A DNA stretch of 64,000 bases from assembly GCA_963663275.1 (NCBI GenBank), contig OY760183.1, positions 1,536,001 to 1,600,000 of the forward strand, in the 5' to 3' direction. The first letter of the stretch is position 1; each line of letters starts with the position of its first letter. Position numbers and translations under genes: made by a program. The notes under the pieces were generated by a model. It searched no databases and was not told the DNA's origin. It saw only the letters and a list, made by a program, of their open reading frames with translations. This DNA comes from Chloroflexota bacterium. Lineage in GTDB: Bacteria > Chloroflexota > UBA11872 > VXOZ01. Positions 47,213 through 63,123 of the stretch are shown one piece after another.

Positions 47213-48514
47213 GTGGTGCTTGTGGGCGGCTTTGCCGTGCTCATCGCGGTGGGGACGCTGCTCCTCATGCTGCCGCCGGCCGCGGCGTCCGGCAGGTCCA
47301 CGTCCTTCATCGATGCTCTCTTCACCGCCACGTCGGCGGTATGCGTAACCGGGTTGGTGGTGGTCGATACCGGCGAGCACTGGAGCGCGTTCGGCCACGC
47401 GGTCATTCTGGCGCTCTTCCAGCTTGGCGGCTTCGGTTTCATGACCGGCTCGATTCTGATTTTGATGATTCTCGGGCAATCGATCCGGCTGCGCCAGCGT
47501 GTCCTGATGCGCGAAGCCCTCAACCTCTCCAACATCGGCGGCATTGTGTCCATCGTGCGCAATATCGCCATCTGGACGTTGGTGGTGGAGGCCGCCGGCG
47601 TGCTTGCGCTGGCGCTCTTCTTCGCGCGGGAGAACGAGCCGGGGCACGCCCTCTGGATGGGGTTGTTTCACGGGGTATCGGCTTTCAATAACGCCGGATT
47701 CGACCTGATGGGCGGCTTTTCCAGCTTGACCCAATATCGCAGCGAAGGGTTCCTGCTTACGGTTATCGCCCTGTTGGTGGTATTCGGCAGCACCGGGTAC
47801 GTGGTGTTTGAGGATATGGCGCGCTCGCGGCGCTGGCTGCGCCTGAGCCTGGAGACCAAGCTCATCGTGCTCGTAACCGGCGCGTTGTGGCTGATTGGCG
47901 GCCTGGCGTTCTTCTGGCGCGAACGGTCCAATCCGCTTACGCTGGCCGGCGAAGTGTGGCACGTGCAACTCCTGGACACGTTCTTCCACAGCGTGGCCGC
48001 CCGCACCGCGGGGTTCGTCGCGCTGCCGGTGGGCAGCATGACCGAGGATACGACGTTCTTCACCATGGTGCTCATGCTCATTGGCGGCGCGCCGGGCTCC
48101 ACGGCGGGGGGCATCAAAGTGACGACTTTTGCTATTCTCATCGTGACGGTCATGGCGGTGATGCGCGGCAGAACGCGCATCACGATACTGCGCCGCACGC
48201 TGCCCCAGGAAGTGGTGCTGCGCTCGCTTGCCATCACTTTGCTGGCCGCCTTGCTGCTCATCGCCGTCAGTTGGGTGCTGGCGGAGTTCGAGACCGGCGG
48301 CTTCATGCCGGTGCTCTTCGAGGCCGCGTCGGCGCTGGGCACGGTAGGCATGTCGTACGGCATAACGCCCCAGCTGCACGACGTTAGCCGTCTCGTGCTG
48401 GTGGCGGCCATGTTCGTGGGGCGACTCGGCCCGCTTACGCTGGTGCTGCTGTTAGCGCAGAAGACCCAGCGCGAGCATCTGCAATTTCCTCGTGAATCGG
48501 TACGTGTGGGATAG
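47213..48514 (+). CDS. ktrB: Ktr/Trk potassium uptake membrane subunit
   Basis: FTATSAVCVTGL, SAFNNAGF, RTAGF, GSTAGGIK, SALGTVG and MFVGRLGPLT motifs. The true start is probably further upstream (see findings). Confidence 0.92.
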   Translation: MVLVGGFAVLIAVGTLLLMLPPAAASGRSTSFIDALFTATSAVCVTGLVVVDTGEHWSAFGHAVILALFQLGGFGFMTGSILILMILGQSIRLRQRVLMREALNLSNIGGIVSIVRNIAIWTLVVEAAGVLALALFFARENEPGHALWMGLFHGVSAFNNAGFDLMGGFSSLTQYRSEGFLLTVIALLVVFGSTGYVVFEDMARSRRWLRLSLETKLIVLVTGALWLIGGLAFFWRERSNPLTLAGEVWHVQLLDTFFHSVAARTAGFVALPVGSMTEDTTFFTMVLMLIGGAPGSTAGGIKVTTFAILIVTVMAVMRGRTRITILRRTLPQEVVLRSLAITLLAALLLIAVSWVLAEFETGGFMPVLFEAASALGTVGMSYGITPQLHDVSRLVLVAAMFVGRLGPLTLVLLLAQKTQREHLQFPRESVRVG

Positions 48515-48524
48515 GAGTGACGCC

Positions 48525-49175
48525 ATGCCGAATCAACAGATCGCGGTGATCGGGCTGGGCCGCTTTGGCACCAGCGCGGCTATTCAGCTTGCCAGCCTGG
48601 GCTACGACGTGCTGGGGGTGGACAAGAGCGCGGACAAGGTGGAAAGCATGTCGGACGAGCTTACCCACGTGGTGCGGGCGGATACGGCAAATGAAGGCGC
48701 GCTGGAAGAACTGGGCATTCGCAACTTCGACGTGGTGGTGGTGGGCATTAGCTCGGACGTGCAGGGCAGCATCATAACGACGTTGATCCTCAAGCATCTG
48801 GACGTGCCCTACGTAATCGCCAAGGCGCGCGACGAACTCCACGGCGAAATCCTGGATAGGATCGGCGCCGACAAGGTGATCTATCCGGAGCATGAAGCCG
48901 GCGTGCGCATTGCGCATACGTTCATCTCCCACGCCATCATCGACTATGTCGAAGTGGTGCCCGGCTACGGCGTGAGCAAGCTCAAAGTGCCCGATCGGTT
49001 CGTGGGCCGCTCGCTGCAGGTGCTCGGCTTCGGCGAGGACAGCGGACTGCGCATTTTGATGATCGGACGCAACGACAGTGTGGTGCACGACCCCAAACTG
49101 AGCGAACGCATCCAGGACGGCGACGTCTTGATGATGGTGGGCGAAGACCGGTACTTGAGCGAGATGGAACTCTAG
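48525..49175 (+). CDS. ktrA: Ktr/Trk RCK regulatory subunit
   Basis: VIGLGRFG, VIAKA, IGADKVIYPE and a TrkA-C tail. SD AGGAG. Confidence 0.92.
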   Translation: MPNQQIAVIGLGRFGTSAAIQLASLGYDVLGVDKSADKVESMSDELTHVVRADTANEGALEELGIRNFDVVVVGISSDVQGSIITTLILKHLDVPYVIAKARDELHGEILDRIGADKVIYPEHEAGVRIAHTFISHAIIDYVEVVPGYGVSKLKVPDRFVGRSLQVLGFGEDSGLRILMIGRNDSVVHDPKLSERIQDGDVLMMVGEDRYLSEMEL

Positions 49176-49242
49176 CGGTCAGTCTTGCGCGGTCGCTTCA
49201 CGCGGGGAGCGCGAGACTGCCAGGCAAATGGCGCGTGAAGGC

Positions 49243-49271
49243 TTGACGAAGTTCGCGCTATGTGGTTAAAT
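49243..49271 (+). promoter_or_regulatory. Candidate sigma70 promoter
   Basis: TTGACG-N17-TTAAAT preceded by TG. Confidence 0.5.
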
Positions 49272-49324
49272 GGAATAGGAGAGGGCGTGAGTCCTCGAAA
49301 CGGCACCAAGGAGGGAGGTGAGCG

Positions 49325-49393
49325 ATGAGAGGCATACGCTTGCCGTTGGATAACCCGAGAGTGCTGTACGGTGTTTGGCAAGTGGACAGGTAA
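49325..49393 (+). CDS. Putative 22-aa small peptide MRGIRLPLDNPRVLYGVWQVDR
   Basis: Very strong SD (AAGGAGGGAGGTGA) immediately before the ATG. Lies inside a unit bounded by a promoter and a terminator. Confidence 0.5.
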   Translation: MRGIRLPLDNPRVLYGVWQVDR

Positions 49394-49580
49394 CCCTCCA
49401 TCCGCGCACGATTGAGACAGGTTCGATGCGGGTGGAGGGCCAGACCGCAGGGTGGCGGGTTTTGCCGCTCGATGCGTAGCAACGGCCGGACGTCTGAAGA
49501 GCCCGGCCGCGCTAAAGCTGACGCCCCAGTCCAGGGCAGTTGAATACGGCGAAACTACGGCCCGACCCATCATTGGGAAT
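49394..49580 (+). ncRNA. Putative structured RNA with a hammerhead-like CTGAAGA...GAAA core
   Basis: 12-bp stem 49394-49405/49428-49439; hairpin 49450-49470; CGTAG(49475-79) pairs with CTACG(49555-59); CTGAAGA at 49494-49500; GCC/GGC then GAAA at 49551-49554. Confidence 0.4.
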
Positions 49581-49582
49581 GA

Positions 49583-49617
49583 AGCGCGCCTCGGATACGT
49601 TCCGAGGCGCGCTCTTT
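49583..49617 (+). terminator. Intrinsic terminator
   Basis: AGCGCGCCTCGGA-tacgt-TCCGAGGCGCGCT, a 13-bp stem followed by CTTT. Confidence 0.75.
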
Positions 49618-49717
49618 GGTTGGCGAGAGGGGGCTTGGTTCTGCCCGCGTGCGGCACGCTGTGCGCGGCGCGCCGGGCGGCGGCAGAGTGTCAACCCACG
49701 GAGATCCGGAGAGAGTC

Positions 49718-50050
49718 ATGAGGGATATGCGCGCGCGCACACCGGCGGTGATCTCACGCGGCGAGGCTGAGCGCACGCTGGTGATCGAATGGCGCGACGG
49801 CCACGTTACGCGCTACGACTGGGAAGCTTTGCGCCGCCTGTGCCCGTGCGCGCTCTGCGCGGGCGAAATGGGCGCGCCGGGCACAATGAAACCCGGCACG
49901 ATTCTGATGGCTAGCCAGACGTTTCTCGAATCGATCGAACAGGTGGGCAACTACGCGGTGCGCATGCAGTGGGAAGACGGCCACAACACGGGAATCTACA
50001 CGTTCGACGGCCTGCGCGAGCAATGTCCGTGCTGTGCGGAAGCCGGATAA
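49718..50050 (+). CDS. DUF971 / gamma-butyrobetaine hydroxylase N-terminal-like protein
   Basis: IEWRDGH, LRRLCPCALC, VGNYAV and WEDGHNTGIYTF..LR motifs. Confidence 0.9.
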   Translation: MRDMRARTPAVISRGEAERTLVIEWRDGHVTRYDWEALRRLCPCALCAGEMGAPGTMKPGTILMASQTFLESIEQVGNYAVRMQWEDGHNTGIYTFDGLREQCPCCAEAG

Positions 50051-50062
50051 AGGCGGCGGGCG

Positions 50063-50764
50063 TCACTGCTTGAGATAGAGGGCCGCGCTGGGGCAGAGGT
50101 CTTGCACGGGGCACGCGCCGCAGTCCGGCTTGCGGGCGGCGCAGACGGCGCGGCCGTGGTGAATGAGCAGGTGGCCGACGTCGATCCAGTCGGCCTCGGG
50201 CACAACGTCCATGAGGTCGCGCTCGATTTTGGCGGGGTCTTTGTGACGGGTTAGCTTGAGGCGCTGCGAGAGGCGCGAGACGTGAGTATCGACCACCACC
50301 CCGTCCGCAACCTGAAACGCCACGCCCAGCACGACGTTGGCGGTCTTGCGCGCCACGCCCGGCAATTCCAGCAACTCAGCCATCGTCTGGGGCACGTCGC
50401 CGCCGAATTTCTCCAGAATGACGCGCGCCGCGCCCTGGATGTTCTTGGCTTTGTTGCGGAAGAAGCCGGTGGTCTTTACGGCCGCTTCCAGGTCCTCCCT
50501 GGAGGCGGACGCAAAGGCTTCCACAGTTGGAAACTGCGCGAACAAGGCCGGCGTGACGATGTTCACGCGCTTGTCCGTGCATTGGGCGGAGAGAATCGTC
50601 GCTACCAGCAGTTCCCAGGCGTTGCGGTAGTGCAGGGCGCACTCGGCATGGGGATAGGTAGCGCGGAGACCGGCGATGACCTGGCCCACGCGCGCGCGCA
50701 GGGCGCGTTTCGACTCTCTTCCCCGCCTCGCCTGCGGCGGCTTTGCGTTCTTCCGGGTAGGCAT
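50063..50764 (-). CDS. nth: Endonuclease III
   Basis: LVATILSAQCTD, HhH LPGVARKTANVV, VDTHV and the C-x6-C-x2-C-x5-C Fe-S motif. Confidence 0.96.
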   Translation of the reverse strand: MPTRKNAKPPQARRGRESKRALRARVGQVIAGLRATYPHAECALHYRNAWELLVATILSAQCTDKRVNIVTPALFAQFPTVEAFASASREDLEAAVKTTGFFRNKAKNIQGAARVILEKFGGDVPQTMAELLELPGVARKTANVVLGVAFQVADGVVVDTHVSRLSQRLKLTRHKDPAKIERDLMDVVPEADWIDVGHLLIHHGRAVCAARKPDCGACPVQDLCPSAALYLKQ

Positions 50765-50780
50765 GGCGGCGGAACGCGGG

Positions 50781-51089
50781 CTACGAGGATTGGTCGGCGC
50801 CGACCAGGTCGCCGCGGCCGCGCAGGCTTTCCAGATTCTGCGTATGCACGTGATTGCCGGGCACGATGTCCTGCGTCGCGGCGCCGATAGATTCGCCGTA
50901 CTTGATCACGTGCTCGCCGTTGGCGATGGGCTTCACCGCAACCTTGTGGCCGAAGGGAATGTCGTCGCGGATGGTGATCTCCTGCTCACCGTCCGGCCCG
51001 GTGAAAGAGACCGTAGTCCCCGGAGTGAGGTCCGCCAGCGCAATGGCGGTGTTGTCCTTGTCGTCGATGATGTGGAGCACTTGCTTCAT
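50781..51089 (-). CDS. UxaA-family SAF-domain protein (altronate/sulfolactate dehydratase small subunit-like)
   Basis: DNTAIAL, IPFGHKVA, VIKYGESIG, HVHTQN and RGRGD motifs. Confidence 0.88.
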   Translation of the reverse strand: MKQVLHIIDDKDNTAIALADLTPGTTVSFTGPDGEQEITIRDDIPFGHKVAVKPIANGEHVIKYGESIGAATQDIVPGNHVHTQNLESLRGRGDLVGADQSS

Positions 51090-63031: not shown

Positions 63032-63123
63032 TGGCGGAGAGGGTGGGATTCGAACCCACGACGCCCTTTTGGGGGCGTAATCGTTTTCGAGACGATCTCC
63101 TTCAACCACTCGGACACCTCTCC
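63032..63123 (-). tRNA. tRNA-Ser(CGA)
   Basis: GGAGAGG acceptor stem, anticodon arm ATCGT-CTCGAAA-ACGAT, long variable arm, GGTTCGAATCC T-loop, G discriminator and encoded CCA. Confidence 0.97.

Follow-up and report, generated by a model that had tools for sequence, protein, structure and literature searches.

A putative peptide-encoding structured small RNA and its family in Chloroflexota

We examined a window of 64,000 nucleotides (nt) from a Chloroflexota genome (contig OY760183.1, positions 1,536,001 to 1,600,000), in which an element at 49243-49617 lies between a ktrB/ktrA gene pair and a DUF971 gene. Judged by comparison with related genomes, this element is a member of a previously undescribed family of structured, peptide-encoding small RNAs that we encountered in Chloroflexota only. 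With moderate confidence we read it as an independent small gene that would produce a peptide-encoding structured small RNA (sRNA) of the dual-function type. It is not a ribozyme. A first-pass annotation of the window had described a self-contained unit with promoter, small open reading frame (ORF), structured RNA and terminator, a description that conservation supports, and had offered as one interpretation an undescribed mRNA for a peptide whose 3' domain is structured, or a new class of RNA. This interpretation holds, given the lack of any Rfam match and the conservation of both ORF and stems.

Conservation of the unit within the genus

Searched at the DNA level in 41 genomes, the element was present in its own genome and in all 16 other genomes of the same genus at 69-83% identity, each time as a single copy, and absent from 24 genomes of five other families of the class. 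Gene order is constant in the 17 genus members (ktrB-ktrA-element-DUF971-endoIII), on which all counts in this and the next two sections are based. The conserved block spans from the -35 box to the terminator, and the flanks diverge. Within the ktrA-DUF971 interval, the comparison of homologues suggested in the first-pass annotation found the ORF and the stems conserved, with covariation, in the 17 genomes. Two ORFs of 161 and 74 codons run over the element on the minus strand; we rejected them as coding, because gaps of 1-2 nt in the genus alignment cut through them.

The alignment shows that the unit has its own conserved, predicted sigma-70-type promoter and terminator (Table 1). The promoter TTGACG-N17-TTAAAT lies where the first-pass annotation had placed it, and a looser scan finds a promoter-like site at the same alignment column in 16/17 relatives; the first and last positions of the -10 hexamer are an invariant T. 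A strict promoter scan lists none at 49243-49271, because it demands an A at the second position of the -10 hexamer. From the promoter spacing, transcription would start near 49278, and the predicted transcript is about 340 nt long, from approximately 49278 to 49617. The 13-bp terminator of the first-pass annotation is also in place, and 6 of 14 pairs in its alignment show compensatory changes. Conserved promoter, conserved terminator and differing neighbours (see below) together point to an independent transcript, as expected of a dual-function sRNA. The whole predicted transcript folds at -155.5 kcal/mol against -132.1 +/- 5.2 kcal/mol in 100 dinucleotide shuffles (z = -4.5), none of which is as low.

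A conserved 22-codon ORF

The very strong Shine-Dalgarno (SD) sequence and the ORF are present as first described. The ORF is open in all 17 genomes, and in one of them the stop reads TAT and the frame continues. Residues 5-15 and 17-21 (RLPLDNPRVLY-x-VWQVD) are invariant; codons L6, P7, L8, D9, N10, R12, Y15 and V17 vary only synonymously, including changes at two positions of a codon (TTG/CTN, AGA/CGA). Codon 16 has a synonymous TGT/TGC change along with a G/C replacement, which is the sole replacement in residues 5-21. By codon position, the variable columns of the ORF are distributed 6/4/13. Invariant residues with synonymous variation indicate selection on the amino-acid sequence rather than on the RNA. 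The comparison thus shows that the 22-codon ORF, which we take as coding from this variation, is under purifying selection at the amino-acid level, and that this selection acts on the C-terminal core (R/H)-x-hydrophobic-(Y/F/W/L)-G-V-W-Q-V-D. Such comparative evidence argues for a translated small ORF, another property of dual-function sRNAs.

Neither Pfam nor NCBIfam has a match for three peptides of the family, and a protein homology search with the 42-residue open frame of one family member returned no candidate among proteins of 23-74 residues.

A covarying fold in place of a hammerhead

The consensus fold was computed with RNAalifold from the 17 sequences, and one spurious helix with the untranscribed promoter was removed before counting. 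It comprises 81 pairs, and 97.5% of cells are paired. Of these pairs 22 are compensatory, against 9.5 +/- 1.8 in shuffles, none of which (0/500) reaches 22; sliding the partners by 1-3 columns leaves only 3-6 such pairs. The conserved fold shown by this alignment, as predicted, consists of a 5' hairpin (P1), a helix between the SD region and codons 5-8, a hairpin abutting the stop codon (P2) and a domain built around a three-way junction. P1, the GNRA hairpin noticed at 49281-49296 in the first-pass annotation, is paired in 17/17 genomes, and one of its pairs is compensatory (CG 14, UA 2, AU 1). P2 starts 6 nt after the Asp codon and is 99% paired, with two compensatory pairs. The stem that the first-pass annotation had seen right after the stop is thus real, with 13 bp here instead of the 12 reported, but the further hairpin it placed behind this stem falls outside the conserved fold. 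In the 3' domain, helices 6-10 are 85-99% paired, with compensatory pairs in 1/4, 4/8, 3/4, 3/5 and 1/5. The covarying pairings are those of GCGAAACT (49549-56) with GGTTTTGC (49458-65), TAGC/GCTA and GGCCG/CGGCC. The first-pass annotation had proposed CGGCCGG/CCGGCCG as an alternative pairing that might sequester the core; GGCCG/CGGCC is in fact the conserved covarying helix.

The same 3' part had been compared to a type III hammerhead, with a variant or switchable ribozyme domain as a possible consequence. In the window genome alone such a fold can indeed be drawn from the letters at 49475-49559, as CGTAG-CA-ACG..CGT-CTGAAGA-GCC..GGC-GAAA-CTACG, but it is not a conserved feature. CUGANGA occurs in 1/17 genus members, the window genome itself, and is missing even from the closest relative at 83% identity; GAAA stands at the corresponding place in 8/17, and position 16.1 is a C. 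The covarying helices 49458-65/49549-56, 49477-80/49511-14 and 49484-88/49504-08 use these bases differently and are incompatible with hammerhead stems I-III, the GAAAC bases being part of the covarying closing helix with GGTTTTGC. Moreover, none of the hammerhead models in Rfam gives a match up to E = 10. On these comparative grounds the type III hammerhead is refuted, and we regard the chance of a ribozyme in the 3' domain as practically nil. What likeness there is comes from a chance match to CUGANGA and GAAA, with possible flanking stems, in one genome only. As this case shows, one sequence taken by itself may contain a convincing-looking hammerhead string by coincidence alone.

In this genus, segments resembling GGAGGG (three) and CCCTCC (two) recur in the arms of P1, in the SD and in the arms of P2 (49281-49296, 49310-49320, 49394-49439), so that alternative pairings are possible; this repetition is missing in other subfamilies. 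P2 and the terminator were also considered as a terminator-antiterminator pair, with arms that look alike by eye in members of the type-A subfamily; the likeness is absent in the genus and the idea was dropped.

Searches against described families

At Rfam 15 gathering thresholds the whole window gives no match at the element; the only match at this level is a tRNA gene (63035-63123, minus strand). With cmscan on 49150-49730 up to E = 10, the only match is BcKCsr2, a Burkholderia sRNA, at 17.3 bits (gathering score 40), and it falls on the terminator. In 19 + 14 loci of the wider family, Rfam gave nothing beyond a tRNA and, on the minus strand, two matches below threshold, His_leader (29.2 bits, gathering score 49) and ctRNA_p42d. 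ARAGORN finds nothing at 48000-51000, and a canonical transfer-messenger RNA (tmRNA) of 170 bits is encoded elsewhere in the same genome. A tmRNA identity was rejected on these two results. The first-pass annotation had been unable to match the element to tmRNA, RNase P, SRP, 6S or a common riboswitch, and the absence of an Rfam family for it is confirmed. The family as a whole matches no described family in Rfam, Pfam or NCBIfam. The literature searched contained no mention of GVWQVD, and among the papers listed on Chloroflexi arrest peptides, RNAs with small ORFs or Dehalococcoides sRNAs none concerned this family.

A possible relative came from Dehalococcoides mccartyi CBDB1, for which a 2026 transcriptome study lists three abundant unassigned sRNAs (sRNA1-3), sRNA3 being 311 nt long (PMC12961961). 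As presented there, these sRNAs resemble the element in being monocistronic, intergenic and from Chloroflexota, in having sigma-70-type promoters and in lacking an Rfam match, and sRNA3 is of similar size. A difference is that the three genomes of genus g39, inferred to be Dehalococcoides, lack the type-A 3' domain as well as the peptide motif (0/12 for family f22, and no match of the peptide profile below E = 0.25). A link to sRNA3 was rejected on this absence of motif and domain from the putative Dehalococcoides genus.

A family with a shared layout

The genus peptide profile has no match in 81 other genomes of the class. Across 401 genomes sampled from the phylum it gave weak matches, which lie in tiny open frames and cover the peptide's C-terminal half. 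All 20/20 loci fetched from these weak matches share the layout of promoter, SD, small ORF and downstream hairpin. A TTGACA / TGnTAnnnT promoter is followed by a short leader, an SD and an ORF of about 12-30 codons ending in GVWQ(V/I)D-x-stop; then come a hairpin by the stop (usually GCCCUGC...GCAGGGC), some 120-150 nt of further structure and a terminator. The family consensus for the end of the ORF is (R/H)-x-hydrophobic-(Y/F/W/L)-GVWQVD-x-stop.

A scan for the back-translated motif, with one genome per species, yielded at least 119 stretches, and flanking DNA was taken for 80. Record titles place 54/80 listed matches in Chloroflexota (Dehalococcoidia, Thermomicrobiales, Ktedonobacterales, Chloroflexia and others); the 26 in other phyla serve as chance controls. 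Among the matches listed, 49/54 with Chloroflexota titles, as opposed to 1/26 of the controls, have a hairpin of at least 7 bp that begins 5-8 nt past the Asp codon; in nearly all family members this distance is 6-7 nt. All family members with record titles come from Chloroflexota lineages. Over 67 distinct members, the motif is written with three codons for G, four for the first V, two for Q, four for the second V and two for D, so that every wobble option across GVWQVD is used. Four residues before the Gly stands His (32), Arg (27) or Gln (6), and the residue immediately before it is Phe, Tyr, Leu or Trp in 66/67 members. Many Dehalococcoidia have an ORF of just 14 codons that reads M-(R/K)-L-H-x-hydrophobic-(F/Y/L)-GVWQVD-x throughout; the shortest ORFs of the family have 13-14 codons, and the N-terminal part varies between 0 and about 20 residues.

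A single-base change (TGA to TGG, or TAA to GAA) removes the usual stop in 8/68 members (L058, L062, L066, L086, L092, L131, L038, L046). Their frames run 5-18 codons further and mostly end in the hairpin loop, and the position of the hairpin is kept.

In distribution the family is uneven. In family f51 the unit is carried by 14/15 genomes, one copy each, with no match in reversed-pattern controls. A class-level sample of Dehalococcoidia has the exact pattern in 51/301 genomes (controls 0), with 0/12 in family f22. In a phylum sample of genomes at least 90% complete, a broader peptide profile at E <= 0.001 matches 40/401 genomes, and 26/387 outside the genus of the window; one of these 26, G301, enters only that count. 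Two genomes of the Dehalococcoidia class have three diverged paralogues each, G631 (L265, L266, L268) and G664 (L269, L271 and one on a further contig), for example MNLQALYGVWQVDE, MTIQKLYGVWQVDL and ...LLKWYGVWQVDL. Other pattern matches in these two genomes fall within long ORFs and seem to be chance. Of 11 pattern matches in viral contigs, 9 likewise look like chance, and 2 related contigs are ambiguous. The latter (IMG/VR, L275:150-650 and L282:150-650, minus strand) have a TTGACA-N17-TAGAAT promoter, a frame MRLR(M)I(Q/L)GVWQVDN-stop, a terminator and a tRNA gene downstream. They are without a stop-abutting hairpin and without a clear SD or 3' domain, and a second frame is also open, which leaves their membership uncertain.

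The genes next to the unit vary from member to member (transketolase, FAD-binding oxidoreductase, gamma-glutamyltranspeptidase, sulfatase, ferritin, Ffh, phosphofructokinase and others), and in 8/19 loci the closest ORF downstream that has a Pfam match lies on the other strand. The same layout beside unrelated genes means that the unit is not the leader of one particular gene. A gamma-glutamyltranspeptidase gene adjoins the unit in two families (L040, L041, L048); in one it precedes the unit in the same orientation, in the other it follows convergently, which could be coincidence or old synteny. At L049 (G288:C27), in a small genome, the unit adjoins a tRNA gene and an opposite-strand ORF of a phage-type integrase, a single case that may not mean mobility.

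The 3' domains were compared in the Dehalococcoidia-type members, with covariation counted on an alignment fitted to a covariance model. From 29 members, RNAalifold gives P2, a closing helix of 14 bp and two inner hairpins. The covariance model of this 3' part matches 51/100 family loci, 22 of them outside the 29 seeds, and every one of these 22 starts directly after the ORF. In this domain 95.3% of cells are paired and 14/14 closing-helix pairs are compensatory; the observed values are reached in 0/500 shuffles, and slid controls give 5-12 compensatory pairs against 21. The model (R1) has no match to the element of the window. The 3' domains of the subfamilies share architecture (hairpin, three-way junction, terminator), not sequence.

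Peptide gene, regulatory RNA or both

How might such a unit act? In the dual-function reading the peptide would be the primary product, because its core and the hairpin behind the ORF are what the subfamilies have in common. The RNA structure would gate or limit translation and stabilise the transcript. A ribosome reaching the end of the ORF would have to melt the abutting P2, coupling translation to the folding of the 3' domain. This domain, whose covariation is typical of functional RNAs, probably has a riboregulatory or protein-binding activity of its own, which would make the element a dual-function RNA like RNAIII/hld or SR1/SR1P. RNAIII of Staphylococcus aureus encodes delta-haemolysin and SR1 of Bacillus subtilis encodes SR1P. 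Like them, the element is a stand-alone unit of a few hundred nt with its own promoter and terminator, a tiny peptide and a conserved structured RNA. It has no sequence or structural relation to either, and unlike in RNAIII and SR1 conservation of the peptide core far exceeds that of the RNA; the stop-abutting hairpin and the distribution in Chloroflexota only are particular to this family.

Several observations weigh against this reading. The invariance of GVWQVD is partly by construction in members that were found by a DNA pattern; the motif being preset by the search, only the use of wobble positions, the preferences in flanking residues and the profile-found loci are unbiased. The spread is patchy (those 26/387 phylum genomes outside the genus, and 0/81 other genomes of its own class), which argues against a core function. 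Since the 3' domains of the subfamilies are not alignable, as the failure of model R1 on the window's element illustrates, the RNA part could be mainly a stabilising 3' untranslated region. In the genus, a short U-tract and a co-oriented DUF971 gene 100 nt downstream leave read-through possible. Finally, occlusion of the SD is not general. Its predicted accessibility in the genus is modestly reduced (0.23 vs 0.42 in shuffles), but in type-A members it is 0.46 vs 0.33 in shuffles. General sequestration of the SD is thus unsupported, and we do not claim it because of these mixed results. In 38 type-A members, codons 2-3 (RGCUUC) are predicted to pair with the hexamer GAAGCY at the 5' end, and one of these pairs is C:G in 14, U:G in 13 and U:A in 11.

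Alternatively, the unit could be a plain micropeptide gene whose peptide acts in trans, the hairpins and 3' domain being mRNA stabilisers and terminator. The peptide core is the only part conserved in all subfamilies, their 3' domains being not alignable, and the two viral contigs of uncertain membership would fit, with promoter, an MRLR..GVWQVDN-stop ORF and terminator in the absence of P2 and 3' domain. However, the dense compensatory change and the conserved junction sequences within subfamilies exceed the needs of a stabiliser, the position of the hairpin relative to the ORF end is fixed, and in 38 type-A members the 5' end pairs with codons 2-3. We hold this explanation to be rather unlikely.

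The fixed geometry would suit a nascent-peptide arrest sensor, in which the core of about 10 residues stalls the ribosome from within the exit tunnel, with the Asp codon or the next one at the decoding centre. The ribosome would then sit on the 5' arm of P2, hold the hairpin open and switch the 3' domain. Conservation confined to the last 10 or so residues, behind an N-terminal part variable in length and sequence, speaks for this model, as does the hairpin's near-constant distance from the Asp codon. The exit tunnel is long enough that a peptide of 13-14 codons would still be inside the ribosome at termination. Loss of the stop in 8/68 members, which keep motif and hairpin, would be tolerable if the stall precedes the stop; the constant spacing in these variants is trivial, though, as they arise by single-base changes. 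ErmBL sets a precedent, as it stalls at its tenth codon, an Asp (PMC8274638, PMC9178857); the core of the element likewise ends in an Asp codon. With ErmBL, TnaC, SecM and MifM the element shares a short ORF, conserved C-terminal residues and an RNA structure close behind. Nonetheless, these arrest peptides sit upstream of the gene that they control and act on it in cis, whereas the element ends in a terminator, has varying neighbours and has no sequence similarity to them. Cis control as in leader peptides does not fit the family, which has no shared downstream gene and is followed by a convergent one in 8/19 loci. The residue after the Asp is not conserved, any resemblance of the Trp and Asp of the core to TnaC, SecM or AAP is putative, and the stall itself is hypothetical. 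An arrest sensor, the boldest reading and the main rival of the dual-function one, is unlikely on balance. Narrower still is the idea of a stand-alone translation sensor, in which arrest by the GVWQVD chain opens the hairpin and thereby switches an RNA domain acting in trans; we think it quite improbable. If true, it would mean that the logic of arrest peptides has been uncoupled from a downstream gene and sets the activity of a small RNA.

The first-pass annotation had also named a type I toxin locus, that is, a restrained, structured mRNA for a toxic peptide under antisense control. With type I toxin mRNAs such as hok, fst and tisB the element has several traits in common: a self-contained, structured mRNA with its own promoter and terminator, a small ORF with a paired start, a patchy distribution and, in some genomes, up to three diverged copies. 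The peptide speaks against this reading. Neither MRGIRLPLDNPRVLYGVWQVDR nor M(R/K)LHx..GVWQVDx contains a hydrophobic membrane-spanning stretch; unlike those toxins, the peptides of the family are hydrophilic or amphipathic, have 13-30 residues and contain the invariant motif. Type I toxins are not known to have a hexapeptide as invariant as this across a phylum. In a consensus scan of 17 members, no conserved antisense promoter-like site was found, with 0 alignment columns reaching 3/17 on the minus strand, and within the genus the element is stable and syntenic in 17/17 genomes. The toxin proposal does not survive these results well, and we consider it very unlikely.

Equally slim is the case for a cis-acting leader or attenuator of the DUF971 gene (49718-50050). 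This gene is co-oriented and lies 100 nt downstream in 17/17 genus members, behind a terminator with a short U-tract. Elsewhere in the family, however, downstream genes are unrelated and often convergent (8/19), and no DUF971 gene is near the other members. No alternative antiterminator pairing was found in the element, and the spacer 3' of the terminator is not conserved.

Features and neighbourhood of the element

The features of the element and the flanking genes are collected in Table 1. The small CCA-N4-TGG hairpin is uninformative because its three pairs never vary. The U-tract of the terminator reads CTTTGGTT, and with the DUF971 gene following on the same strand in 17/17 genomes, partial read-through could take place (window 49617-49718).

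Table 1. Coordinates, in the window, of the features of the element and of its flanking genes.
Feature	Position	Strand	Remarks
-35 box TTGACG	49243-49248	+	Read in sequence; TTGAC invariant in 17/17 genus members
Extended -10, TG-G-TTAAAT	49263-49271	+	Hexamer 49266-49271, TG 49263-64, 17-nt spacer
P1, 5'-terminal hairpin GAGGGC-GTGA-GTCCTC	49281-49296	+	GNRA loop; six pairs
Helix with codons 13-15	49300-06	+	Consensus fold
Shine-Dalgarno sequence GGAGGGAGGTG	49310-49320	+	Read in sequence
SD helix	49313-49323 with codons 5-8 (49338-49348)	+	98% paired; variation mostly one-sided
ORF, 22 codons + TAA, MRGIRLPLDNPRVLYGVWQVDR	49325-49393	+	Open in 17/17
Family core RVLYGVWQVD	49358-49387	+	Codons 12-21; motif recurs in other Chloroflexota
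P2, hairpin	49394-49439	+	13-bp stem, 49394-49406 with 49427-49439; starts at the base after the stop
3' domain, three-way junction	49450-49563	+	Covarying consensus fold
Closing helices of 3' domain	49450-53 with 49560-63; 49458-65 with 49549-56	+	
Arms of 3' domain	49477-49514; 49522-49538	+	First arm with two stacked helices
Small hairpin CCA-N4-TGG	49567-49576	+	Between 3' domain and terminator; three pairs
Intrinsic terminator	49582-49617	+	13-14-bp stem, then CTTT; stem 49583-49613 with 13 pairs, 10 of them G-C
TrkH	47213-48514		Flanking gene
TrkA_N/TrkA_C	48492-49175		Flanking gene
GBBH-like_N (DUF971)	49718-50050	+	Co-oriented with the element, 100 nt downstream
Endonuclease III gene	beyond DUF971	-	On the other strand

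Implications

Chloroflexota are abundant in the environment and poorly studied genetically, and next to nothing is known of their small RNAs or small proteins. Gene callers miss the family described here. Three of its traits are unusual: a hexapeptide invariant across classes of the phylum, ORFs with as few as 13-14 codons, and a hairpin set at a constant distance from the ORF end and followed by a covarying RNA domain. With this family one can test cleanly whether conserved peptides of such small size work as free products or while still nascent chains, and how a single molecule couples its translation to its folding.

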